From UHGV virus genome UHGV-2155131: 11,422 nt of DNA. The stretch is one strand, 5' to 3'. The notes beneath the pieces were generated by a model. The model did no database searches. It saw only the letters and a program-made list of their open reading frames with translations, and was not told where the DNA came from. This document shows positions 1,111 to 11,422 of the stretch, piece after piece (the first letter of the stretch is position 1; every line of letters begins with the position of its first letter). This DNA is from a virus. A program made the translations under genes and the position numbers.

Positions 1111-1392
1111 TTACCGCCGCAACCGCTCCGGCTTCTTCCAGTGGTACGTTATTTTCTCCTTCTCCCGATACATCTCCACGCGGCGACGGTAGGCCAGCAA
1201 CTCAAGAACTCTGGTTCGTATGTTGCGCATATCCACGCCATTAAGTTCTATACCATCACGGCGCATCACCTCCGCAACAACACGCGCATAATTTTCAGCG
1301 GTCACGCTGTCCGGCTGCGTGGCCTGTTCGTCAACCTGCTGGCTGATTCCGGCAACGCGGCGGATTAATCCCAGTATTTCGGCTTCTGTCAT
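1111..1392 (-). CDS. Hypothetical protein (93 aa) in the position a small terminase occupies relative to cos
   Basis: ATG start at 1392 preceded by a GGGGG motif. The translation is charged and helix-rich, unlike the antisense ORFs. It lies downstream of the cosB-like region on the same strand as the right cos copy. Confidence 0.5.
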   Translation of the reverse strand: MTEAEILGLIRRVAGISQQVDEQATQPDSVTAENYARVVAEVMRRDGIELNGVDMRNIRTRVLELLAYRRRVEMYREKEKITYHWKKPERLRR

Positions 1393-1425: not shown

Positions 1426-1490
1426 CGGGTCCTTCCTGGAATTATGGCCCGTTACGGGGCGGCGACCTCGCGGTTTTTCGCTATTTATGA
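1426..1490 (+). other. Lambda-type cos site, left copy (cosQ-like + cosN GGGCGGCGACCT at 1457..1468), plus orientation
   Basis: gttacg|gggcggcgacct|cgcgg...ttttcgctatttatga matches the lambda cohesive-end region recalled from the lambda genome left end. Forms a 65-bp inverted repeat (62/65 identical) with 1959..2023. Confidence 0.6.
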
Positions 1491-1828
1491 GATTTTTTGA
1501 GGGGGTGGTTGTTGTTTAATTGTTTGGTATATCTAATTGATAAGTAAGGTAAAAATAAAATTAATACAACAACCTTACGATGTATTTTGATGTCATTAAT
1601 GTGAAAAAATTCAATGATATCAAATGGTTTTGTAAAAACACATGGTTGTTGTATCGCGTATTTGATGGCGTAACAGAAAGTGATTTTTAACTTTACCGCT
1701 CTGTAACTACGGATTATTCCATGCTGGCACGGAGAACGGCTACGGCATGACGCCACCCAGCCTATACAGAACAGTAAAGCCGATAAATTGTTAATCACGC
1801 GCAGCAATGCGTGTGATTTTTGCACACT

Positions 1829-1958
1829 TCCGGTTAACGGGTACGATGTCCGGTTTTAGTGTCTGTTTTTTGCGCATGTCCGGTTCATAGAAAGCATGTT
1901 TTTATATTTTTCATATGGTTAACTTGCAGAGAAACCGGACATGGATCCCGGAAAATTT
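1829..1958 (-). promoter_or_regulatory. cosB-like region with TGTCCGGTT repeats (candidate small-terminase R sites) and an AT-rich IHF-like stretch
   Basis: tgtccggtt at 1850..1858 and 1879..1887, inverted copy aaccggaca at 1934..1942, related cttccggttaac at 1829..1840. Lies directly next to the right cosN, as cosB does in lambda. Confidence 0.4.
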
Positions 1959-2023
1959 TCATAAATAGTGAAAACGCGCGAGGTCGCCGCCCCGTAACGG
2001 GCCATAATTCCAGGAAGGACCCG
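1959..2023 (-). other. Lambda-type cos site, right copy (cosN at 1981..1992 on minus strand), the copy most similar to lambda cos
   Basis: Reverse complement reads acgggtccttcc...gttacg|gggcggcgacct|cgcgcgttttcactatttatgaaaattttccgg, matching lambda cosQ/cosN and the start of cosB through TATTTATGAAAATTTTCCGG. Confidence 0.7.
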
Positions 2024-2024
2024 T

Positions 2025-2046
2025 AAAAAAGCCGGATTTCTCCGGC
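2025..2046 (-). terminator. Rho-independent terminator ending the capsid operon
   Basis: On the minus strand: hairpin gccgga-gaaa-tccggc followed by a T6 run, 7 nt after the stop of the 2053..2460 gene. Confidence 0.6.
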
Positions 2047-2052
2047 CTTGTC

Positions 2053-2460
2053 TCAGATGGTTTTCAGTATGCGATCGATGTCGCCGTCATCGCCCTGGTT
2101 TNNNNNNNNNNNNNNNNNNNNNNNNNNNNNNNNNNNNNNNNNNNNNNNNNNNNNNNNNNNNNNNNNNNNNNNNNNNNNNNNNNNNNNNNNNNNNNNNNGC
2201 TCTATGGTCATGTTCAGGATTTCACGAGCATTATCGACGCTAATACATGGCACGTTTGCCATTGCACGTAACAGCGGCTGATAGTCTTTATGCTCATGAA
2301 GCGCCATAATCGCATCAGCGCGCGGCTTGTCCTGCTCTTCCAGTTTGTTTAGTTGATATACGGCCTCATAGGTTGATAAACCTCTGTCAGCCATTGCCCG
2401 CGCTTCGGCTTTAAATTTACTCGCCAGCGGTAGCGTCATGATGCTTTCATTCGTTGCCAT
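2053..2460 (-). CDS. Hypothetical protein, last gene of capsid operon; reading frame spans an assembly gap
   Basis: Start at 2460 with a GGGGG motif and TAA-coupled spacing after the decoration gene. N-terminal 87 aa are real sequence. The C-terminal 15 aa and the terminator placement suggest the gene ends at 2053, but frame continuity across the N run is unverifiable. Confidence 0.45.
   Translation of the reverse strand: MATNESIMTLPLASKFKAEARAMADRGLSTYEAVYQLNKLEEQDKPRADAIMALHEHKDYQPLLRAMANVPCISVDNAREILNMTIEXXXXXXXXXXXXXXXXXXXXXXXXXXXXXXXXXNQGDDGDIDRILKTI
2102..2198. other. Assembly gap (97 N)
   Basis: Literal run of n in the sequence. Confidence 0.95.
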
Positions 2461-2472
2461 CGTTCCCCCTGC

Positions 2473-2808
2473 TTATCGGGCCAGCGGCTGAACGGATACG
2501 CCGGAACCCGCAAAGGCGGCGCATTTTTTCGCATCGGTGTCGACGCTCTCAGGCCAGTTAACGGCGGCAATATTGAATATCCCCGTCTTGTAACACTGTG
2601 CTGATTTCTGCTTTGACGTGTCCACAGGGTACGAGGTCAGATAAACAGCCTTGCCAGATTCCTTACCATCCCACGGCTTAAACTCGCCATTGTCCGCCAG
2701 CATCAGCGGGGTAAATTCCTGAATAACGCCAGCATCAGCGGCAAAATGTACCAGCGTCGTGGCGACCTGCTGACTGCCTGCAAATAACTCAATGTATGGA
2801 GTGTCCAT
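2473..2808 (-). CDS. Head decoration protein, lambda gpD-like
   Basis: 111 aa. Shares TPLML, WDG, YKxGxF, WPE and KKxAAFAG motifs in the same order as lambda gpD (recalled from memory). GGGGG Shine-Dalgarno motif 6 nt before ATG. Confidence 0.8.
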   Translation of the reverse strand: MDTPYIELFAGSQQVATTLVHFAADAGVIQEFTPLMLADNGEFKPWDGKESGKAVYLTSYPVDTSKQKSAQCYKTGIFNIAAVNWPESVDTDAKKCAAFAGSGVSVQPLAR

Positions 2809-2819
2809 AGAATCCCCCG

Positions 2820-3875
2820 TTAACCAATTTTGACGGTAACAAATTTGCGAATATCTGCCGGAACCGGCTGCGGTGCGCTGTGCGTCTGCACGTACTCAAT
2901 CGCCGGATCGCCGTCCTCAATCCAGTTTTTCGGGTAAAACATGTTTTGCGTTGCGCCCGTTCTTACTGCGTCCTGATCCATAATCGCACCATAGGCCACC
3001 AGCCCTTTATTGTTGGTGTTGCCCAGGACAAGCAAATCAGGCTCAAGGAAATATTTTTCTGTGCCGTCGCTGTCAGTGTATTTGCCGGAATAGACGATAA
3101 GGGCAATATCGCCCAGATAGCCTTTAAAGCTCACCACTTCGCCCAGGTTTTTACAGGCCAGCTCTGCGGCGGACTCTGAACCACGGGAAAGATCGTACAG
3201 CTCACGGAATTTTTTAAAGCTGCGTAACGTTCGCCATACCTCAGCGCCCATAATCATGACGTTTGCGGGGCAACCAGCCTGATCGGCGTATAGTTCGATA
3301 TCATAGATTGGATCGTGGGTTTCTTTGTCCTGCTCTGACCATTTTTTCCCGTCGGCCTGCTCTATGATGTTTTTTTCCGGTATCTTCCAGTCGATTTCAT
3401 AGCGCTCTATGCCTTCGCCTTCAATGATGTTTTTTCCGGTCGTTACCGCATTTACCGCCAGCCATTCCACGCGCGCTTTTATGGCGTTTATCTGGCGGCG
3501 CATATTGCCAGTAATCAGGCGCATACGGCGATAGGTAGGGTCGTTAAGCTGTGCCGGATCTTCTCCAGCCATGCGCATGATGGTTTTCGTTGGATCGATT
3601 TCGTGCTTTGGCTTCATGTAGCCAGGTTTAATCGTGCTGGTTTCGTACCCTTTATCGCGCTGAACCTGGCTACCCACCATAGGCGAACAAAACGCCGACA
3701 TGGTGACTTCTTCAATGTCCAGGGTATCCAGCATGATGTTTTGCGTGCTGAATGTCGCCACGTTCGGGAAAAACAGCGTGGTAAACAGCGGACTGAATTT
3801 AAATTCCGCAATATCCCCGCGATTCAGGTACGCAAAAAGCTGGTTAGTGTTAAGTGCCATTGCTTTTACTGTCAT
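2820..3875 (-). CDS. Major capsid protein, lambda gpE family
   Basis: 351 aa. Collinear with lambda gpE across the whole length (FKFxPLF, TPGYxKPKHE, DPxYRRxRxI, WSxxDKxTxDP, YSGxY, VLGNT, YPKNW, GDPA, SAP). Start overlaps the upstream stop (TAATG). Confidence 0.9.
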   Translation of the reverse strand: MTVKAMALNTNQLFAYLNRGDIAEFKFSPLFTTLFFPNVATFSTQNIMLDTLDIEEVTMSAFCSPMVGSQVQRDKGYETSTIKPGYMKPKHEIDPTKTIMRMAGEDPAQLNDPTYRRMRLITGNMRRQINAIKARVEWLAVNAVTTGKNIIEGEGIERYEIDWKIPEKNIIEQADGKKWSEQDKETHDPIYDIELYADQAGCPANVMIMGAEVWRTLRSFKKFRELYDLSRGSESAAELACKNLGEVVSFKGYLGDIALIVYSGKYTDSDGTEKYFLEPDLLVLGNTNNKGLVAYGAIMDQDAVRTGATQNMFYPKNWIEDGDPAIEYVQTHSAPQPVPADIRKFVTVKIG

Positions 3876-4081
3876 TATTCACCCCCGTGAACCTGATTCA
3901 TACCCAGCGCCGCGCGTAAATAGGCGCGTACCTGCCAGCCTGTTGACGGCTCAACCATCGCCAGCGGATCAAGTCCTGCCGCAATGCCTGCTTTTACGTT
4001 CTGCTGGTGGCGTTCCTTGAGCGCCTTCACGATGTCGGGGCTTATGTACACCGAAACACCGCCTTTTTTCTCTTCAGCCAT
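3875..4081 (-). CDS. Small hypothetical protein (68 aa) translationally coupled to the capsid gene; possible beta-strand/helix DNA-binding-like pattern
   Basis: AGAGGAA Shine-Dalgarno motif 9 nt upstream of ATG at 4081. TAATG overlap with the capsid gene start. Function not recognised. Confidence 0.5.
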   Translation of the reverse strand: MAEEKKGGVSVYISPDIVKALKERHQQNVKAGIAAGLDPLAMVEPSTGWQVRAYLRAALGMNQVHGGE

Positions 4082-4248
4082 AGTAAGAAATTCCTCTTTG
4101 ACTTAAAAAATCATAACTGGATGTTCATCCAGATCTGATTATAATCATGATTGCATTTTATGCAATGATGTTGAGTTGTGTTGCAAAATATGAAATGATG
4201 ATCCCGATCATGTGTGTCAGTGCACCAAAAAAAACCTCATATGCAAAA
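4082..4248 (-). promoter_or_regulatory. Putative late/capsid operon promoter region with palindromes
   Basis: AT-rich stretch between the bidirectional terminator and the first capsid-operon gene. Contains ctggatg-tt-catccag (4119..4134) and tgattataatca (4137..4148, includes a TATAAT-like hexamer). Confidence 0.35.
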
Positions 4249-4287
4249 GCCCGATAAGATGCCTCCTGTACTTATCGGGCTTTTTTT
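4249..4287 (+). terminator. Rho-independent terminator-like hairpin (gcccgataag ... cttatcgggc + T7)
   Basis: 10-bp perfect stem, 12-nt loop, T7 tail on the plus strand. May act bidirectionally together with the neighbouring hairpin. Confidence 0.5.
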
Positions 4288-4293
4288 GGGTAC

Positions 4294-4316
4294 AAAAAAG
4301 CCGGATTACTCCGGCT
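4294..4316 (-). terminator. Rho-independent terminator for the regulator / replication-side operon
   Basis: On the minus strand: hairpin gccgga-gtaat-ccggc then T6, 6 nt after the stop at 4322. Nearly identical to the terminator at 2025..2046. Confidence 0.55.
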
Positions 4317-4321
4317 GTTGA

Positions 4322-4594
4322 TTAGCTGTCTGGGTAATTACGCCATATTTCATCGCTTACACCATCTATACCCATTTCAGCATAAGTGCGATCTACTGCC
4401 TTTCTCAGGTCTCCGAAGTTATCCGGCGGCTCCGGTGGCTTCTGTGCCTTCCTGGAACATTCCAGCCGTCGCATCGTAACCTGATGCCGTTCCTTGTCTG
4501 TCTCCACCAGTTGCATGACTTCACCCCATCGTGCCGCCGCCCTCCGGTAAAAGCCTTTTGCCTCGAGTTCCTCCGCTATGCGGTCATGTACCAT
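4322..4594 (-). CDS. PerC-family transcriptional regulator-like protein
   Basis: Motif AEELEAKGFYRRAAARWGEVM resembles the conserved PerC/Pch core as I remember it. Preferred start is ATG 4594 with GAGGGGG upstream, directly after the SSB-tail stop. The ORF track extends to a GTG at 4714. Confidence 0.55.
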   Translation of the reverse strand: MVHDRIAEELEAKGFYRRAAARWGEVMQLVETDKERHQVTMRRLECSRKAQKPPEPPDNFGDLRKAVDRTYAEMGIDGVSDEIWRNYPDS

Positions 4595-4604
4595 CCTCAC
4601 CCCC

Positions 4605-4897
4605 TCAGAACGGAATATCATCACCGTAAGGGTCATCGCCTCCCGCTGGTGGCTGATTACCCTGTGTGCCTGTGGTCTTGCGTCTGTTCCCGCCAGGACG
4701 TGCCGCACGGGCACTGATTACGCTGTCTGCAATAACCTGATAACCCTGCCGCGTTTCCCCGTTCTGTCCGGTCCACTGGCTGATCTGCATGGCAAAGATA
4801 CCGCCATACGCGCCAGCGTCATCGGTGTACCCTTGCTGGTCTGTTTTACCTGCGGGTCGTCCACCAGCCGCCCGTAAGCGGCTATCTGTGCTGTCAT
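4605..4897 (-). pseudogene. SSB-like gene remnant in two frames: N-terminal OB-fold fragment (4718..4897) and C-terminal fragment ending in the DDIPF acidic tip (4605..4790)
   Basis: Frame A (MTAQIAAYGRLVDDPQVKQTSKGTPMTLARMAV...) resembles the SSB N-terminus. Frame B (...QISQWTGQNGETRQGYQVIAD...GGDDPYGDDIPF) resembles the SSB beta4-5 region and C-terminal tail. The frames overlap out of phase, about 40 aa of OB fold are missing, and no slippery heptamer was seen. Confidence 0.5.
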
Positions 4898-5172
4898 GAT
4901 TCCACCTCTCCGGTTTTAACGTTGATGGTTGTTACCTGTTCCGCTTCTGCAATCTCCCGCTCTGTCAGCGTGGCAAAGTTTGCCGCCGCCGTGGTCATGA
5001 ATGCGCTTATTAGTTCGGGATGTGCTTTCGAGTATCCTTCTCCCGCTGTGATGTCTATCACCTTTATAGCCACCTTTAAGGCGTGCTCTGTCATCTCCAG
5101 CGCTTTATATCTTGGTGCTGTTCTGTCTTTGCGTTTTTTGAGTGATTTGTTAAATCTTCCTGATGTGTGCAT
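4894..5172 (-). CDS. Hypothetical protein (92 aa)
   Basis: ORF starting next to the iterons. Its stop overlaps the SSB-like frame A start (ATGA). Function not recognised. Confidence 0.45.
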   Translation of the reverse strand: MHTSGRFNKSLKKRKDRTAPRYKALEMTEHALKVAIKVIDITAGEGYSKAHPELISAFMTTAAANFATLTEREIAEAEQVTTINVKTGEVES

Positions 5173-5220
5173 TTTTATTTTTACCCTCGTGTTTAAAAAG
5201 TTTTAGGTTGTGGTGCACCT

Positions 5221-5445
5221 CCTCTACCTCTCTACCTAATCATCTTTCATGTCAGTAATGGCGCGGCTTTCAGATGGGTAGAGGGCTTTCGTGGCCCTCT
5301 ACCCATCCTCTACCCGCCCCTCACAAACGATCTTAATCATGGTAGAAGAGGTAGAGAGGTTTTATTAGCCTTCTACCTAGCCCTCTACCCACTTATCATG
5401 TTGAATAATATGCGTTTATTTCATTCAGGTAGATTGGGTAGAGGG
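5221..5445. repeat. Iteron array; candidate replication origin downstream of the primase gene
   Basis: About 10 copies of CTCTACC / GGTAGAG in both orientations (e.g. 5222, 5230, 5276..5285, 5295..5304, 5307..5315, 5350, 5381..5390, 5436..5445), including the palindrome gggtagagggc-N7-gccctctaccc (5276..5304). Flanked by AT-rich stretches. Confidence 0.6.
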
Positions 5446-5458
5446 CTTTTACAAAAAA

Positions 5459-7207
5459 TTATAAAAACGCGTCACAATCATCAGTTGTAATTGCGTTGGT
5501 CTGCGTTACTCCCTTAACTCTCCGCGTAATATATTCATGTCCGTAAACTTTTGCCGCTGGCTTCATGGCCTTGCTGAACTCAGCCACGTTTAGCGGTTTG
5601 CTCCTGCCTGCGTATGCCATAAACGCCAGATAGACGCGGTAAAGGCTGTTTCTGGTCGTGTACTTCACGGAATCGCCACCGCCACCCATCATCAGGCCGC
5701 GAGCTTCCTCCAGAAAATTCAGGAACTGGCAAAACTCAATAACCGGATCCGTCTGTTGCTTTATCGCCAGTGCTTCATCACCGTCGCGCTGTTCCAGTAA
5801 TAAAGCCCGTGCCTTTTCAGGGTCGGCAAAATTAGCCAGCAAGCGACGGATAATTACGGGGATTTCAGCCGCGACCTTCTCCGGCAAATCCTTGTCTTTT
5901 TCGTCCTCCCTTACAATGTTGTCGAACCGGAAAATCACCCGACGGCGTGACACACCTCCGGCCCGCTCGGTGAATATCATCGGGTTATTGTTGGTAGCCA
6001 GCACCACCGCCCTGATTACCGCCGTAAAACGCTTCTCATATTTCGGGTTTATTTCCACTGGGTCGCCGCCCGTGATTTTCTTGATGCCCGTTCCTTCGCC
6101 TGTATATTTCGGCTGGTCAGCCAGGACGATAAGACGACTCCCGACAACCTGCGCACGTCCACCAGCATCATCAAGTGAGGTCATTTCAGCGCTTACCGTG
6201 TTCTGTTTCCCTGCCAGAAGGCTGGCTATGTGCGTGAATGTACTTTTACCGCTACCGCCCTCTCCGGTGGCCTCAATAAACATCTGCCAGTCGTACCGGT
6301 TCGCCATAATCATGTACAGCGCGGCACATATACGCATCATCTTGCGCGGGTCTTTTCCGGCTGCGTGCTCAAGCCATTTATGAAAGTTTGGCGCGTTGTC
6401 GCAGATATTCTCCCCTGGTGCTGGTGGCGTGTACTCAATGCCGTTGTGCGTGGTGATCCAGTTCTCCGGCGTGTGCGGGGAAAATTCCCCCGTTTTCAGG
6501 TCAAGCGCACCATTGGCGAACGGCAGCAAATCGCCGGACGGCTCCCCCATTGGTTCGGCAATAACTTTTAACGCTTCAACGGCGTTATTGATCACGCGTT
6601 TGCTAAAAGTGGCCCTGTGCTCTGAATAGATCGCCACCATTTCGCGGCTAAGTTCCATTGTGCTGACCGGACACCATACCCCGCCGCGCCATACGTGAAC
6701 GATTTCACTTTCCGGATGCACACAAACGCCATCAAATCGACCAGCAAGCATCTGTGCGCGCTCACTGTCTGCCATTTGTGCCAGTTGCGTATTTTTCTGC
6801 TCCGGCATGGTAAGCCCTGCGGCAATATTTTCACGCTCAGCATTCAGATAGCGCCGCCAGTTTTCACACTTCTGGACGTGCATTCCTTCGGGGTAAAAAT
6901 TTGCGTCCTGAATATCTGCCGCCGCCAGCTTCTGACCAATCTTTTTGGTCTCCACCAAATCCAGTTCTCCGGCCTGGTACAGCCTTACGCGTTTTTTTCC
7001 ATCCGGAACAATTTTCAGTGCATCAAGTTCGGCAAGCTGATTTGGCCCAAGCCACACAGGCGGCACATTATCGCCGGATGCGGGGCCATCCTGCTCCTGC
7101 CATTGTTTCGCGTGCGACCAGGCATCACTACCCGCGAAAATAATTACCTCTGTGTCTTTGTGTTTTATTCCGCGTGGCTGTTTTTTTACGTTCGGTGCCA
7201 GTTTCAT
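5459..7207 (-). CDS. P4-alpha-like primase / SF3 helicase replication protein
   Basis: 582 aa. Walker A motif GEGGSGKST mid-protein with a D5_N-like upstream region, typical of phage/plasmid primase P4-family C-terminal domains. GGGG motif before ATG; ATGA overlap with the upstream gene. Confidence 0.85.
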   Translation of the reverse strand: MKLAPNVKKQPRGIKHKDTEVIIFAGSDAWSHAKQWQEQDGPASGDNVPPVWLGPNQLAELDALKIVPDGKKRVRLYQAGELDLVETKKIGQKLAAADIQDANFYPEGMHVQKCENWRRYLNAERENIAAGLTMPEQKNTQLAQMADSERAQMLAGRFDGVCVHPESEIVHVWRGGVWCPVSTMELSREMVAIYSEHRATFSKRVINNAVEALKVIAEPMGEPSGDLLPFANGALDLKTGEFSPHTPENWITTHNGIEYTPPAPGENICDNAPNFHKWLEHAAGKDPRKMMRICAALYMIMANRYDWQMFIEATGEGGSGKSTFTHIASLLAGKQNTVSAEMTSLDDAGGRAQVVGSRLIVLADQPKYTGEGTGIKKITGGDPVEINPKYEKRFTAVIRAVVLATNNNPMIFTERAGGVSRRRVIFRFDNIVREDEKDKDLPEKVAAEIPVIIRRLLANFADPEKARALLLEQRDGDEALAIKQQTDPVIEFCQFLNFLEEARGLMMGGGGDSVKYTTRNSLYRVYLAFMAYAGRSKPLNVAEFSKAMKPAAKVYGHEYITRRVKGVTQTNAITTDDCDAFL

Positions 7208-7503
7208 TTTTTACCCCTGAATACGTTAAGCATCTTTTTTATTTCCTGAATATTGGCGCGTGCTTTCTCCCTGCTGGTGGGCACGTTACGCGGTACGGCC
7301 TGCACCAGAGAAAAATCACGATCGAACTGATAAACAGGCATCACGCAATCATATTCGTAGCCTTCACGACGGTAGGTTACGCGCCGTTCCTCCACGCCCT
7401 TAATCATTACCGTGCCGCCGTACTGGTCGCGGTAAATATCACCGCGCATGAATTTAGTGCGAGTTTTGCCACTGGCAGTTAAGCCAGAATATTTAAGTTT
7501 CAT
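7204..7503 (-). CDS. Hypothetical protein (99 aa), translationally coupled to primase
   Basis: ATG at 7503 with GGAG upstream. Stop overlaps the primase start. Confidence 0.5.
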   Translation of the reverse strand: MKLKYSGLTASGKTRTKFMRGDIYRDQYGGTVMIKGVEERRVTYRREGYEYDCVMPVYQFDRDFSLVQAVPRNVPTSREKARANIQEIKKMLNVFRGKK

Positions 7504-7508
7504 TATTT

Positions 7509-7739
7509 TTATTCTCCGGTGTGGGGCGCTTTATTATTCTCGTGAATTGCCATAGCCTTATTGAGTTCATCAATAACAGGTGTCAATAATGTCTGAACAG
7601 CGGCAAACATTAATGATGAATGATCTTCGCCACCTTCCGGCACTTCAATTAATTTAATTAATAACGCATTCATTTCGCGTGCTTTAATTAATGCGTTTTC
7701 AGAGTGGATTAATACTTCAAAAGGGATTTTATGCATCAC
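7509..7739 (-). CDS. Small hypothetical protein (about 75 aa) in a low-GC segment
   Basis: GGGAG Shine-Dalgarno motif before a GTG (7739) / ATG (7736) start. Helical, acidic composition. Confidence 0.5.
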   Translation of the reverse strand: MMHKIPFEVLIHSENALIKAREMNALLIKLIEVPEGGEDHSSLMFAAVQTLLTPVIDELNKAMAIHENNKAPHTGE

Positions 7740-7959
7740 AAATTTTCTCCCTTATTCTTTTAATGTCCTCATTAAGGATGTCTGTAACTTTTATCAGCGA
7801 GTTTTTGGCAATTATTTTTATTGTTTTAAGTTTTCTTTTGTCGTGCTCCGACTGTGATTTTCTTTCCATAATCTCCACCATGTGGGTAACATCAACGAGC
7901 GCACGTATCAGTATTTGCATTGCTTCTTCTGCTGCGTCCGGACGGGTGTTATTGCACAT
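7729..7959 (-). CDS. Small hypothetical protein (76 aa) in a low-GC segment
   Basis: Strong AGGAGG Shine-Dalgarno motif 6 nt before ATG 7959. 11-nt overlap with the downstream gene. Confidence 0.55.
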   Translation of the reverse strand: MCNNTRPDAAEEAMQILIRALVDVTHMVEIMERKSQSEHDKRKLKTIKIIAKNSLIKVTDILNEDIKRIREKICDA

Positions 7960-8155
7960 GGCACACCTCCTGACGAATACGGGCAGCGAATACCATCACG
8001 CAGCCAGCCGGGGATTGCTGGCGTGCTTCCTGTTCGCTGGTGGCCTCGATGGTAATCACGCGCGGTTGTGCCGTGCTCAGGGCGATAAAACGCCAGATGT
8101 ATTTATTCAGGTCGTGCGAGTCCCGCCCTTGCGGGTGTGTGGTATGATTTCTCAT
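7949..8155 (-). CDS. Small hypothetical protein (68 aa), probable first gene of the leftward replication operon
   Basis: Internal ATG at 8155 with GAGG 6 nt upstream. Protein-like translation (MRNHTTHPQGRDSHDLNKYIWRFIALS...). Same frame as the long 439-codon ORF. Confidence 0.4.
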   Translation of the reverse strand: MRNHTTHPQGRDSHDLNKYIWRFIALSTAQPRVITIEATSEQEARQQSPAGCVMVFAARIRQEVCHVQ

Positions 8156-9268
8156 AGCTGCCTCGATACTTTCGCTATCGTTGGTGGTTAGAAGCCCGGT
8201 TAGTGTTAGCGCACTGCCGGGTTTCGTCGTTTCTGCACCTTGCGCCAACAAGGTGTTGAACACCAATTTAAACCCAGGTGTTAAACACGTCAAGTGTTGA
8301 ACACTTATTTTTTTTCCTGCATACTGCATTTGTTTTTTATGAGGGGTACACCACATGGCGACAAAAGCAGTAAACGCAAAATCACAAACCGTTGCGGCAA
8401 GGGTTCCGCATGAAGTTATGAACAATGTTGAGGCGGTAAAAATGCCTGGCGAAAGTACGGGGCAATTTGTTACTGCGGCATTAAAACGAGAAGTTGAATA
8501 TCGCCAGCGGCGCAAGGCCAGTGAATCCGAGAAATCATTAATCACGTCATAACATGAAGAACGATGGCGATAATCATAGGAGTAAAAGATGTTAAAATTA
8601 AAAAAACATGTACCAATGATGGTTGCTTTAATTATCACAATCTTTCTCTTAATATCATGCTTTGAGAAAAATAGTCTTTGCTCAAACGATAAGGGCGATT
8701 TATTACGGCGTGCTTGCGATGTAGAGTTGAAAAAAAGTTGAGCACTACCTAACCGAGACAATGCCGTAGTTCCTGTAATCACAGGATCGCTCAGGCTTTG
8801 CCCACCAGCCGCAAATATGGCATTGTTGGCAATGCTCATGCGTTGGGGATAACGTGTAGCTTGTGTCGAGGGGCCACCGTAGCGGGTGGCCTTTGTTTTG
8901 CCCGTTATTCGGCAATTGTGGCGCTTCTCCACATGGTTGATATAATCCCACTGCTCAGATTCATTTTTTGCGCAGTAGGTTAATTGTTCACAAAGGCGCT
9001 CCGGCAACGGGGCGCTTTTTGTTTTTATTAGTTTGTAGAAACCTGACTCAGAGATAATGCTCATATTCTGATTGCCGTCAGGGGTGTAAGTTAAATTTAC
9101 TCCCTTTTTATCATCAAACATCTGCAACGCTCTGGCGTTAACAATATTGGTTTCACTCCCGCCAGTAAGGCCGGAAATAACCGGAATAATTTCGGCAAAA
9201 TTTTGCAGATTCTGTTTTTCAGGACGAACGAAGCCCCGCCCTTGTTCGGGAGAATATCCAGTATTCAT
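7949..9268 (-). CDS. Bro-N domain (antirepressor-like) protein; only the N-terminal ~175 aa (about 8745..9268) is recognisable and the 3' extent is uncertain
   Basis: DGNQNMSIISESGFYKLI...LPERL matches the Bro-N core motif (NMNIINESGLYSLI). The frame then runs stop-free for about 800 nt through low-complexity translation, antisense to the RHH gene and the operators. Confidence 0.45.
   Translation of the reverse strand: MNTGYSPEQGRGFVRPEKQNLQNFAEIIPVISGLTGGSETNIVNARALQMFDDKKGVNLTYTPDGNQNMSIISESGFYKLIKTKSAPLPERLCEQLTYCAKNESEQWDYINHVEKRHNCRITGKTKATRYGGPSTQATRYPQRMSIANNAIFAAGGQSLSDPVITGTTALSRLGSAQLFFNSTSQARRNKSPLSFEQRLFFSKHDIKRKIVIIKATIIGTCFFNFNIFYSYDYRHRSSCYDVINDFSDSLALRRWRYSTSRFNAAVTNCPVLSPGIFTASTLFITSCGTLAATVCDFAFTAFVAMWCTPHKKQMQYAGKKISVQHLTCLTPGFKLVFNTLLAQGAETTKPGSALTLTGLLTTNDSESIEAAMRNHTTHPQGRDSHDLNKYIWRFIALSTAQPRVITIEATSEQEARQQSPAGCVMVFAARIRQEVCHVQ
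8253..8304. promoter_or_regulatory. Three operator-like inverted repeats GTGTTNAACAC within divergent promoters
   Basis: Copies at 8253..8263, 8278..8288 and 8294..8304. Rightward promoter candidate: -35 TTGAAC (8297..8302) and -10 CATACT (8320..8325). Leftward candidate: -35 TTGACG (complement of 8288..8293) and -10 TAAATT (complement of 8265..8270). Confidence 0.5.
8355..8552 (+). CDS. Ribbon-helix-helix-like small DNA-binding protein (putative island repressor/regulator)
   Basis: GAGGGG Shine-Dalgarno motif 8 nt before ATG. N-terminal beta-strand with alternating hydrophobics (TVAARVPHEV) followed by two helices, as in Arc/CopG-type proteins. Diverges from the operator region. Confidence 0.5.
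   Translation: MATKAVNAKSQTVAARVPHEVMNNVEAVKMPGESTGQFVTAALKREVEYRQRRKASESEKSLITS
8589..8666 (+). CDS. Candidate 25-aa cationic/hydrophobic peptide (MLKLKKHVPMMVALIITNLSLNIML) downstream of the RHH gene
   Basis: Canonical AGGAG 6 nt upstream of ATG. Below the ORF-track size cutoff. Composition resembles small membrane peptides. Translated by hand. Confidence 0.25.
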
Positions 9269-9320
9269 GGTTAGATCTCTGTATTAGTGGATGGGTGGCG
9301 GCTGTGTGCCGCCAGCCTGA

Positions 9321-9509
9321 TTAGTGAACTGCCTCGCAGCTGTCCTTCCATGCCAGAACTTCGGATAAAGACCAGCCAACGGAACGACCGCCCAGCTTAC
9401 GCCGTGATGGGAATTGTCCGGCTTTTTCCAGGCGGTACCGACATGAGCGGCTCAGGCCTGTAAGTTGCTGACATTCTTTTTCACGTATAAAGCGATCTGT
9501 GCTTAACAC
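9321..9509 (-). CDS. alpA: AlpA-family phage transcriptional regulator / excisionase-like protein
   Basis: 62 aa with the LxxxxRSVGWxxSEVxxW signature of AlpA-type winged-helix proteins. Located between int and the rest of the island, as in PICIs and P4-like elements. Confidence 0.8.
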   Translation of the reverse strand: MLSTDRFIREKECQQLTGLSRSCRYRLEKAGQFPSRRKLGGRSVGWSLSEVLAWKDSCEAVH

Positions 9510-9790
9510 AATTCCCCCTTTGTTGTTTCTTAAAGAGTCATTGGGTGGATTATTGGGTTGGGTTGTGTCGGATTGTGTCAGGGTGTTTGTGGAATGGCAA
9601 ACACTGGCGGCGGTCGTTTTACAGAAGCAGGGGGAATGAGAATAAAAACTCTTTTAATTCATTATGATGCAAAGGCATAAAATTTTACTTTTACGCCTTT
9701 TTTACATATTTTTAAGAGTGATTCGCCAGTGTATAAAAAAACAGTACACCTATAAAAATCAAATGGTTATTACGATGGCTGATTTTTAAC

Positions 9791-9850
9791 CCGTTGTTCC
9801 ATTTTGTTCCTTGTTGTTCGTCGTTGTGTCTCGTTGTTTCACGTTGTCCG
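9791..9850. repeat. Six tandem 10-bp repeats (NCGTTGTNYC) just 3' of int, in the alpA upstream region
   Basis: ccgttgttcc / attttgttcc / ttgttgttcg / tcgttgtgtc / tcgttgtttc / acgttgtccg in helical phase. Confidence 0.5.
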
Positions 9851-9874
9851 CATCCTGAAAAATCGCAAAAAAAA

Positions 9875-11125
9875 TTATATTTCTCTGGCTATTGGCAATG
9901 TGGTTACGTTTTCATGTGTTCCCGCCAGTATCCCTAACCGCTCCGTCCACATATCCAGCGCGTCACGTTTCGCATCCAGATAACGGGAATGGTTATAGAC
10001 TCGTTGCATCCCTGGCATCTGATGACCTGTAAGCTGCTCCACGACGTGAGGATCCACGCCTAAATCGTTCAGCATCGTTGTAAAGGTGCGCCGGATGTCA
10101 TGCAGTGACCAGTGAGGGTGTTTTAGCCTCCTGTGCGCTAATCTACCGTACTGCGACACGCTTGTTTCCTGTTTCACTTCCCCCAGCAATAAGCCCGTGT
10201 GCCTGTTCTGCTCCACCAGCTGCGTGACGAACGGCAGTATTGCTTCCGGTATGGGCCGGAATATTGCCACCTTCGTTTTGCTGTGTTCTTTCGGCACGGT
10301 CCAGAGCATTTCGGTAAAATCCCACTCGCTGATCTCCGATAACCTCAGTTCTACCGTCCGGCATCCGAAAACAATCAGGAGGCGGATTAGTGCGACGTAG
10401 TAAGGGGAAAATATTTTTTTGTCCAGTGCCTGCAATAATTCGCCAAGTTCTTTGGTGCTTAAGACACGCTCGCTTATATCCGGTTTTTTCCCAACGTCCG
10501 CCACACTCATATCATCAAGAACGTTGCTGATTGCATAGCGCCGCCTCCGGCAGAACTTAAGCGCCTGTTTGCACGTCTGTAGCAAGAATCCGGCAGTAAC
10601 AGGCGTTCGCTTTGCCACCTGGTCAAAACAGGCCAGCCAGTGCCGTAGCTCGCATTTATCCAGCGGCATAGCACCAATGTGCTGTATTACGTGATTATTA
10701 AGGCGCTTTTTCAGGGCGGCATAATCCACGCGGTTTTCCTTTGCGTACGACTCAAGCCAGTAGGTGAGCGCATCGCCAACCGTTACCGGCTTTAACGCTT
10801 CCTGTACGGTGTAATTAAGCTCATGACGTGGATTTTTCCCCTCTGCCAGCCATGCGCGACACTGGGCGGCTTTTTCCCTGGCTGATTTCAGGCTCAGATC
10901 AGGATAATTTCCCAGCTTAATGCGTTCCGGTGGTGCCCCCCTTCCCGTTCCGGCCCTGTAAGTGAAATACCAGGTTAAAAGGCCACTGGTTGAATGCCTG
11001 ACGCTCAGGTTTCCACCGTCATTAAGAAAGGCTGTTTTTTGGGCGGGTGTGCCGTTGATTTTCCTCAGCTGTGTATCGCTCAGTTTGTTAAGTGCTCTGC
11101 TCATAATTTTGATTCCGGTCATCAC
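9875..11125 (-). CDS. int: P4-family tyrosine integrase
   Basis: About 410 aa. N-terminal arm-binding-like region (LSDTQLRK...GGNLSVRHSTSG...WYFTYR) and C-terminal catalytic region with an HxxRRT-like motif (LHDIRRTF). The 11125 start is GTG; ATG alternatives at 11122 and 11104. Confidence 0.9.
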   Translation of the reverse strand: MMTGIKIMSRALNKLSDTQLRKINGTPAQKTAFLNDGGNLSVRHSTSGLLTWYFTYRAGTGRGAPPERIKLGNYPDLSLKSAREKAAQCRAWLAEGKNPRHELNYTVQEALKPVTVGDALTYWLESYAKENRVDYAALKKRLNNHVIQHIGAMPLDKCELRHWLACFDQVAKRTPVTAGFLLQTCKQALKFCRRRRYAISNVLDDMSVADVGKKPDISERVLSTKELGELLQALDKKIFSPYYVALIRLLIVFGCRTVELRLSEISEWDFTEMLWTVPKEHSKTKVAIFRPIPEAILPFVTQLVEQNRHTGLLLGEVKQETSVSQYGRLAHRRLKHPHWSLHDIRRTFTTMLNDLGVDPHVVEQLTGHQMPGMQRVYNHSRYLDAKRDALDMWTERLGILAGTHENVTTLPIAREI

Positions 11126-11151
11126 AATTAACTACACCATTAACTACACCG
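11126..11151. repeat. Right copy of 26-bp direct repeat; putative attR core, immediately upstream of the integrase start
   Basis: Exact match to 147..172. P4-family integrases classically have their att core just upstream of int. Confidence 0.7.
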
Positions 11152-11352
11152 ATCGTTGCACAAAGGGCTACAACGTGAAACAAGCTGGAACAAGGAAAAT
11201 CACAAATCTGTTTATAATCAAAAACATAATGAACAATCTGAAACATTATGAAACGGCAAAAAACACTAATTGATAAAATATGCCCATACTTCACGCATTA
11301 CGTTAAGCATCCGTTATAATCGGTTGCAGATACCAGCCTGTGGATGCTTAAC

Positions 11353-11422
11353 ATGGAATACCAACTCACTCTTAACTGGCCCGATTTTCTTGAACGTCAC
11401 TGGCAGAAACGCCCGGTGGTGT
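11353..11422 (+). CDS. roxA: 5' end of a chromosomal roxA (ycfD)-like gene, partial
   Basis: Translation MEYQLTLNWPDFLERHWQKRPVV matches my memory of the E. coli YcfD/RoxA N-terminus. Lies outside the right direct repeat. Confidence 0.55.
   Translation, partial: MEYQLTLNWPDFLERHWQKRPVV

Follow-up and report, generated by a model that had tools for sequence, protein, structure and literature searches.

Why does a phage satellite in which no portal, protease or large terminase gene can be recognised carry a capsid gene and a decoration gene of its own? The question is raised by the virus genome UHGV-2155131, an 11,422-nt stretch of DNA (the window, meaning the whole stretch analysed), in which a first-pass annotation made from the sequence alone had pointed to a compact four-gene operon. 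The operon region is the accessory capsid module (c1498-c1501) of a cos-type phage-inducible chromosomal island (PICI) of the EcCICFT073 family, mobilised by lambdoid helpers, and the window is, judged from its sequence, a copy of such an island, i.e., an E. coli phage satellite. Genes for virulence and defence are widely carried by PICIs, and the acquisition of capsids is central to the biology of these islands.

The capsid and decoration feature is already known. The genes c1499 and c1500 were described in 2018 as lambda-like capsid and decoration genes (Fillol-Salom et al., PMC6092414), and because the supplement of that study lists c1498 with 68 aa and c1501 with 137 aa, the operon of the window can be equated with c1498-c1501. 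The PDB entry 3BQW is entitled ‘putative capsid protein of prophage’, the EcCICFT073 capsid homolog is mentioned in Dokland’s 2019 review, and a major capsid gene is present in 21 of the 29 reference Gram-negative PICIs (PMC10111431). The novelty implied by the first-pass annotation therefore falls away, since the feature was published in 2018 and ‘capsid morphogenesis’ is one of the five PICI core components in SatelliteFinder (PMC10085698); the window is a re-discovery in a partly decayed copy. What is added here is the scaffold homology of the fourth gene, a satellite lineage of capsid-decoration (E-D) pairs that is under selection and has a conserved promoter, and the loss of rpp in the window. 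Taken together, the analysis confirmed the initial observation and supported its interpretation in part: the anatomy was right, while the mechanism is unproven.

A four-gene operon encoding capsid and decoration proteins

Positions 4081..2053 of the minus strand, which the earlier reading had not specified, hold four tightly packed, co-oriented genes:

3875..4081, minus strand: gene 1, 68 aa, homolog of c1498 (open reading frame (ORF) list; phrog_3255, E 8e-37)
2820..3875, minus strand: gene 2, major capsid protein (351 aa, lambda gpE family), homolog of c1499 (Pfam PF03864)
2473..2808, minus strand: gene 3, head decoration protein (111 aa, gpD/SHP family), homolog of c1500 (Pfam PF02924)
2053..2460, minus strand: gene 4, homolog of c1501, with a stretch of 97 N (2102-2198) inside it; complete relatives encode 137 aa

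The homology and structure searches upheld the two family assignments proposed from the sequence, gpE for gene 2 and gpD for gene 3. The match of gene 2 to the Phage_cap_E profile (PF03864; E 2e-52) was nearly full length, covering profile positions 14-328 of 329, and the protein shares 44% identity with lambda gpE across 328 aa and 99% identity with the CFT073 copy. In the structure database it matched PDB 3BQW (E 1.7e-238) and lambda gpE (7VI9, E 7e-84); the full-length profile match and the near-identical crystallised protein (3BQW) place it in the gpE family with the HK97 fold. The gene 3 product belongs to its family by its match to the HDPD profile (PF02924; E 2.5e-17), is 36% identical to lambda gpD and 100% identical to the CFT073 copy, and matched the gpD/SHP structures 1TD0, 1C5E and 7VII. 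The start of gene 2 overlaps the stop of gene 1 (TAATG), by which gene 1 is predicted to be translationally coupled to the capsid gene. The AlphaFold2 model of gene 1 (predicted local distance difference test score, pLDDT, of 74) has a strand-helix-helix layout and gave no Foldseek match against the PDB below E = 1. None of the operon proteins matched NCBIfam or PADLOC.

In the operon, the capsid gene (E) precedes the decoration gene (D). The order in lambda is the opposite, with D at 5747-6079 followed by E at 6135-7160, and D likewise preceded E in all phage relatives for which tblastn returned D/E coordinates (4A7, D2, Lambda_4C10, vB_EcoM-569R10 and others), so that the inversion relative to lambda noted in the first-pass annotation holds. 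Its statement that portal, protease and terminase are absent also holds for the portal, the protease and TerL, the large terminase subunit, with two corrections. No portal, prohead protease or large terminase match was found among the main ORFs of the whole element scanned against Pfam, but gene 4 is itself homologous to head-assembly proteins; on the packaging side, relatives carry rpp, a mimic of the small terminase subunit (TerS), beside the operon, and this gene has been lost in the window.

Gene 4 is related to lambdoid scaffold proteins

On the evidence of profile comparisons, gene 4 is homologous to a C-terminal region found in the lambdoid scaffold/protease (Nu3/gpC). In lambda, the scaffold Nu3 and the protease gpC share this C-terminal region of approximately 85 residues. 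Gene 4 matched phrog_1999 (E 4e-65), and residues 117-200 of lambda Nu3 matched the same family (E 2.7e-26). It also matched the C-terminal part only (positions 495-567 of 583) of phrog_53, ‘head maturation protease’, with E 1.7e-10, and aligned with residues 411-480 of the 498-aa Gifsy-1 gpC homolog (32% identity, E 2e-9). A comparison of the gene 4 family with Nu3 by hhalign gave a probability of 87.6% (E 3.5e-6), and a motif common to gene 4 and Nu3/gpC was visible in the sequence alignment. The homology emerged only through the Gifsy-1 gpC C-terminus, the PHROG profiles and hhalign: a direct BLASTP comparison of gene 4 with lambda Nu3 gave no significant match, and an exhaustive HMMER search from gene 4 returned eight matches, mainly close relatives. 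Gene 4 is shorter than Nu3 (137 aa versus 201 aa), and its N-terminal third differs. The AlphaFold2 model (pLDDT 68) is all-helical with a disordered tail, which would suit a scaffold but proves nothing, and no Foldseek match against the PDB was found for it below E = 1.

A satellite lineage of capsid-decoration pairs under purifying selection

The operon was present in 598 of 5426 complete E. coli genomes (about 11%), with up to five copies per genome, and the module was identical in at least 14 genomes. More distant capsid homologs (68% down to 52% identity) were located by exact-protein contig look-ups; a genome-contig scan with the capsid protein gave no confirmed locus. All the looked-up homologs sit in PICI backbones with E followed by D, in Salmonella (L007, L015), E. 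coli (L008-L011), Edwardsiella (L013) and Serratia (L014, at fis). A satellite-encoded portal, protease or large terminase subunit (TerL) was never seen in these loci. Two of the islands are embedded in helpers, L011 inside prophage gene E and L013 inside a portal gene, and in L013 the satellite E-then-D pair lies approximately 3 kb from the D-then-E pair of the helper. The gene after D varies: two lineages have a Nu3-like gene there, others have an AlpA-like one and some have none. The E-D region is usually followed by a gene for a Nu1-like TerS or for Rpp.

In the identity matrices, the lowest capsid identity between two PICIs (50%) exceeded the highest identity between a PICI and a phage (47%), and the four phage capsid copies formed one clade in neighbour-joining trees, with the same pattern for the decoration protein. 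The satellite capsid was 40-47% identical to the phage and prophage capsids compared, tblastn found no phage capsid protein above 60%, and the Edwardsiella satellite capsid (L013) shared 46% identity with that of its host prophage. The E-then-D pair thus forms a satellite lineage across the Enterobacterales, distinct from all phage copies compared, and is a co-inherited set rather than a recent capture. The capsid gene gave ratios of nonsynonymous to synonymous substitution rates (dN/dS, by the Nei-Gojobori method) of 0.07-0.15, gene 1 of 0.18-0.31 and gene 4 of 0.09-0.29; for the decoration gene, the ratios were 0.08-0.10 when close pairs were compared and 0.15-0.34 for distant ones. The comparative genomics, which found the E-D module in PICI backbones of several genera, and the low capsid dN/dS bear out the earlier view that the region is not a simple lambdoid prophage remnant: the lineage is separate, and the same pair occurs in PICIs of Salmonella, Edwardsiella and Serratia.

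Two further observations were made among the homologs. The Salmonella island L015 (GCA_005980655.1, locus 2292-9812) is a PICI with a lambda-type E-D pair inside the tail cluster of a P2-like prophage, with Tail_P2_I and a tail fibre upstream and tube, gpU, gpX and gpD genes downstream; the capsid family of this host prophage would not be of the gpE type. A 463-aa protein from a single 3.2-kb Logan contig (P0068) joins PF03864 and PF02924 through LGGA and belongs to a 56%-identical lineage; this capsid-decoration fusion could be real or a sequencing artefact.

Promoter and terminators of the operon

The operon is flanked by the following predicted signals:

4299..4316, minus strand: intrinsic terminator after the upstream perC-like gene (terminator scan; hairpin and T-run)
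4236-4285, minus strand: second strong hairpin upstream of the operon (RNA fold)
4138..4165, minus strand: putative operon promoter (read from the sequence)
2022..2049, minus strand: intrinsic terminator closing the operon (GCCGGA-GAAA-TCCGGC stem followed by T6; -16.6 kcal/mol)

The fold energies of the upstream terminator and hairpin were -12.6 and -20.5 kcal/mol, respectively, and the hairpins with T-runs at 4316..4299 and at approximately 2049..2022 agree with the first-pass description of an operon bounded by terminators. The putative promoter has a perfect -10 element, TATAAT (4143..4138), and a weak -35 element, TTGCAT (4165..4160), which is overlain by the palindrome TTGCA-N5-TGCAA (4151-4165). 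Within the 160 nt upstream of gene 1, the -10 element, the palindrome and the ribosome-binding site are kept in PICIs of E. coli, Salmonella and Edwardsiella, in lineages whose coding DNA is saturated at synonymous sites. The palindrome was found at the promoter position in six fetched PICI loci, once in each and twice in L013, and nowhere else within the fetched loci. We infer that the 4138..4165 block acts as the operon promoter. An imperfect second copy of the palindrome lies at 4181-4195, 30 nt upstream of the first, and the Edwardsiella island has two exact copies; the pairing suggests a two-site operator for some regulator. Given the separation of the PICI lineage, the E-D synteny, the purifying selection and the conserved promoter, the module can be regarded as an old, co-inherited, regulated and selected unit and not as a prophage remnant.

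The island and its borders

Compared with the CFT073 chromosome, the window showed 93.6% nucleotide identity across 78% of its length. The features of the backbone were as follows:

147-172 and 11126-11151: 26-bp direct repeat, putative att (window ends compared by blastn, 26/26 identical)
9875..11125, minus strand: tyrosine integrase, at one end of the element (Pfam)
9509..9321, minus strand: AlpA regulator (Pfam Phage_AlpA, E 3e-18)
7503..7204, minus strand: DUF4222 protein (Pfam)
7207..5459, minus strand: D5-type primase (Pfam D5_N, DUF5906 and Pox_D5)
4714..4322, minus strand: PerC-like gene (Pfam; synteny with EcCICFT073)

The integrase, AlpA, DUF4222, primase and PerC-like genes make up a PICI backbone in which the AlpA and primase modules all lie on the minus strand. 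The gene order is that of the published EcCICFT073, running from the integrase through an AlpA-type regulator, small ORFs, DUF4222 and the D5-type primase to SSB, the PerC-like gene, the four-gene operon, cos/rpp and a 93-aa ORF. Like the islands of this family, the element has an integrase at one end, flanking repeats and a size within 10-15 kb (about 11.0 kb between the 26-bp repeats), an AlpA-type regulator, a primase/replicase module and mostly unidirectional genes, as well as a helper-like cosQ/cosN with a non-phage cosB. The ORF list and Pfam/PHROG scans of the main ORFs revealed no genes for lysis, tail, portal or large terminase. The integrase, AlpA regulator, D5-type primase and lambda-like cos sites agree with the first-pass view of the element as a satellite. 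Helper-induced excision, replication and high-frequency transfer have been shown experimentally for EcCICFT073 itself only (PMC6092414). The family feature that was not found is Rpp, the TerS mimic that redirects packaging; its absence is a loss in this copy and not a sign of membership of a different family.

The two ends of the window resemble different islands. The left 2.1 kb are 99.6% identical to the sister island at clpS/cspD in E. coli NCTC9112, and the left flank is the clpS side of that insertion site, with bases 1-1100 being 100% identical to NCTC9112. On the right, the flank corresponds to the roxA side of roxA/phoQ and shows 99% identity to CFT073, the start of roxA included. The switch between the two matches (1-2101 versus 2199-11422) coincides with the N-run at 2102-2198, and the exact arrangement of the window was found in none of the 5426 complete E. 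coli genomes. The window may have arisen by recombination between two resident islands, or it may represent the junction of a large duplication or a join made during assembly or scaffolding.

Three other loci deserve mention. An ORF of 439 aa (7949-9268, minus strand) had no Pfam match; the corresponding region of relatives holds an Icd-like gene, YlcI/YnfO on the opposite strand and a truncated BRO-N gene, and the ORF is probably a chance read-through of remnants rather than a gene. Between the cos region and the end of the island there is a conserved 93-aa ORF (1111-1392, minus strand; phrog_1561, E 3e-57). It had no match in the Pfam or PDB sequence searches, and it is present in CFT073 and WP4-S17 and frameshifted in NCTC9112. 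This ORF was at first taken for Rpp and then ruled out, Rpp being encoded by a 144-aa gene that relatives have between the cos arms. SSB (4605-4897) is broken up into a 59-aa N-terminal ORF and a 61-aa C-terminal ORF ending in DDIPF, the cause being a deletion of approximately 109 bp relative to positions 11734-11843 of the CFT073 locus (L001), at an 11-nt overlap (4780-4790).

cos sites and the loss of rpp

Directly downstream of the operon lie two lambda-like cos arms with the remnant of a packaging gene between them:

1952..2023, minus strand: cos arm adjoining the operon, with cosN GGGCGGCGACCT at 1992..1981; 43/45 identical to lambda bases 1-45
1426..1497, plus strand: second, inverted cos arm, with cosN at 1457-1468; 33/34 identical to lambda bases 1-34
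1696..1761, minus strand: rppA remnant, the last 22 codons with an in-frame stop (tblastn with the 144-aa Rpp of CFT073/WP4-S17)

The arms form a 72-nt inverted repeat of 93% identity, and each carries the lambda cohesive-end sequence GGGCGGCGACCT and then diverges from lambda; the arm next to the operon matches the cos region of a CFT073 lambdoid prophage. A pair of cos sites (cos1 and cos2) has already been described in EcCICFT073 (PMC6739421), and the arms of the window correspond to them. The intact 144-aa Rpp of CFT073 and WP4-S17 (loci L001 and L003) matches the RppC structure 6HLK (E 5e-31). In its place, the window has approximately 200 nt of AT-rich sequence (within 1498-1761). The same rppA-less version was observed in E. 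coli NCTC9112 (L006), so Rpp-less islands with both cos arms and the capsid operon occur naturally.

When the cos segments were compared (window 1426-2023, L001 8159-8971, L003 17529-18340), the segment between the arms, comprising rppA and a cosB-like region, had opposite orientations in CFT073 and WP4-S17. In searches with junction-specific queries, 69 complete genomes had the junction of the CFT073 type and 31 had that of the other type. Such a flip would shift the functional cosB to the other cosN arm and would reverse the direction of packaging.

Possible functions of the module

We favour, tentatively and with somewhat less than even confidence, a conditional structural role in which satellite-made or mixed lambda-type shells are built on the portal and protease of the helper. 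The operon proteins would be made during helper-driven induction; alone or mixed with helper subunits, they would assemble into lambda-like shells on the helper portal with the helper protease; and the helper terminase would package the satellite through the cos sites directly downstream of the operon. The module would then be a conditional encapsidation aid and not an essential transfer function. The presence of its own decoration protein and a scaffold-like protein may argue for a cognate lattice and against a single modifier subunit. The sequence comparisons show what the genes are, that they belong to a satellite, that they are under purifying selection and that the E-D pair has a satellite lineage of its own; the timing of expression, the assembly into shells and any effect on capsid size we infer.

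Several results weigh against this role. Deletion of c1499 or c1500 in EcCICFT073 left transfer by the resident prophages and interference with lambda unchanged, and no phenotype was reported for c1499 (PMC6092414); islands in which c1498-c1501 was replaced by cas9 were still delivered by phi80 (PMC10530653). Since the deletion and replacement islands still transfer, the module is not required for mobilisation by the helpers used. The scaffold-like gene is absent from several E-D lineages (L007, L010, L013-L015), and gene 1, for which no Pfam, NCBIfam or PADLOC match was found, could not be assigned a role. The copy in the window may itself no longer be mobilised efficiently, because rpp is missing and SSB is disrupted. 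When EcCICFT073 was induced with lambda, all the DNA that had been packaged was of phage size (PMC6092414), which is compatible with full-size shells, and interference and preferential packaging have been explained by RppA (PMC6739421). The earlier statement that the element builds or remodels its own shell was too strong in that form and is carried here as a hypothesis, the published knock-outs having had no effect and the packaged DNA having been phage-sized.

The published negatives have to be read together with the markers used. Table 1 of the 2018 study gives the marked EcCICFT073 islands as c1501::tetA or c1499::cat; it was from the c1501::tetA background that c1499 and c1500 were deleted (PMC6092414). 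The tetA-marked gene, c1501, is the scaffold-related gene described above. As the markers disrupted c1501 or c1499 (reading the notation as usual), the negatives are weakened and apparently do not cover the intact module; the scaffold kinship of gene 4 and these in-operon markers could reopen the question of function. That the intact four-gene module builds satellite-specific shells on the helper portal, possibly small heads for one 11-kb genome, and that this was missed through marker placement, is in our view unlikely. If true, satellite-specific shells would represent a third strategy between remodelling helper capsids and encoding the whole capsid.

A narrower form of the structural role is that the satellite capsid and its short scaffold-like partner force small T=3 or T=4 heads, which would hold one 11-kb genome and exclude that of the helper. 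Size redirection by SaPIbov5 is caused by a satellite capsid homolog, and PmCI172, which also carries one, makes small heads (PMC6092414, PMC6893505); of the scaffold, gene 4 has retained the C-terminal part alone (137 aa versus 201 aa in Nu3), the 11.0-kb element would fill approximately 81% of a T=3 lambda-type head (our own arithmetic, T^1.5 scaling), and the negative test was made on c1501::tetA or c1499::cat islands, in which the module was not intact. However, EcCICFT073 with lambda gave phage-sized DNA only (PMC6092414), deletion of c1499 or c1500 left an interference for which Rpp alone accounts (PMC6092414, PMC6739421), and several lineages have E-D without a scaffold-like gene, so that we regard size redirection as unlikely. 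It also seems quite unlikely that the genes are interference or defence cargo whose products poison or divert the head assembly of non-helper lambdoid phages, or act as decoys for capsid-sensing immunity, without any satellite particles. The operon does lie inside the ‘adaptable module’ that the Penades group treats as swappable for cargo (PMC10530653), it is dispensable for transfer, and its proteins, at 44-47% identity, are too diverged from the lambdoid phage and prophage capsids compared to be simple substitutes; yet no PADLOC defence family was matched, lambda plaquing was unchanged by deletion of c1499 or c1500 (PMC6092414), and a poison subunit would need less than a capsid protein that is complete and well folded (3BQW) and accompanied by its cognate decoration protein.

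A backup function has been proposed as well (PMC10111431): relatives integrate in helper late genes, most often E, the satellite E (and D) would replace the interrupted function, and chromosomal PICIs would have inherited the genes. The islands in prophage gene E (L011) and in the portal gene (L013) both carry E-D, as this idea would have it, but the helper gene is restored once the satellite excises, the satellite capsid shares no more than 40-47% identity with the capsids of the phages and prophages compared (46% for the L013 host prophage), and purifying selection maintains the genes in chromosomal PICIs at roxA/phoQ, clpS/cspD and fis; we consider it very unlikely. Scarcely credible is a decaying lambdoid prophage head fragment with no present function. 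The head gene set is partial and the island copy is degraded elsewhere (rpp deleted, SSB frameshifted), whereas the frames of the module are intact, its capsid dN/dS is 0.07-0.15, its promoter is conserved, its E-then-D order occurs in no phage relative with returned D/E coordinates, and PICI backbones of several genera, as well as 598 genomes, contain this module. The pure-relic reading, being contradicted by selection and synteny, is essentially excluded. If the module builds or resizes shells, as the favoured structural role has it, it would be a new, intermediate type of capsid piracy; if it does neither, the purpose of a conserved, complete capsid-decoration pair in a satellite is a real puzzle.

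Comparison with known systems

The closest known element, EcCICFT073, resembles the window in its backbone, gene order and two inverted lambda-like cos sites. It differs in that the window has lost almost all of rppA, carries the deletion of approximately 109 bp in SSB and has a rearranged interval between the cos arms; moreover, the left 2.1 kb of the window resemble the NCTC9112 clpS/cspD island, whereas its right end resembles the CFT073 roxA site. In comparison to lambda Nu3/C, D and E, the module has a homologous capsid (44%), a homologous decoration protein (36%) and the C-terminal region of the scaffold, and both systems have an HK97-fold capsid without a delta domain and a separate scaffold. 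The order is scaffold-D-E in lambda and E-D-scaffold in the module, which has no counterparts of the lambda portal, protease domain, terminase, FI, FII and W.

SaPIbov5, with its capsid homolog Ccm, and PmCI172 are likewise satellites without portal or terminase that carry a helper-type capsid homolog. They are linked to small heads, whereas EcCICFT073 with lambda gave no small heads or DNA (PMC6092414, PMC6893505); Ccm has no sequence relationship to the capsid of the window, where the module also has decoration and scaffold-like genes. Capsid-forming PICIs (cf-PICIs) such as EcCIEDL933 also combine a PICI backbone with phage head genes. Encoding portal, protease, head-tail connectors, TerS, TerL and HNH themselves, they depend on the helper for tails only (PMC10085698). 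None of this set (portal, protease, head-tail adaptor/connector, TerS, TerL, HNH) was found among the ORFs of the window. P4 shares with the window a size of approximately 11 kb, a P4-type integrase, AlpA, a D5-type primase and a helper-type cos site; no family corresponding to Sid, Psu, Delta or Ash was found among the ORFs scanned with Pfam/PHROGs, a scan that did not include some small ORFs. The defining genes of both groups being absent from the ORFs scanned, membership of the cf-PICIs or of P4 was rejected, in line with the first-pass view that the element differs from both. P4 uses P2 helpers and novel remodelling factors, whereas the window belongs with lambdoid helpers and carries head genes homologous to helper-type structural proteins.

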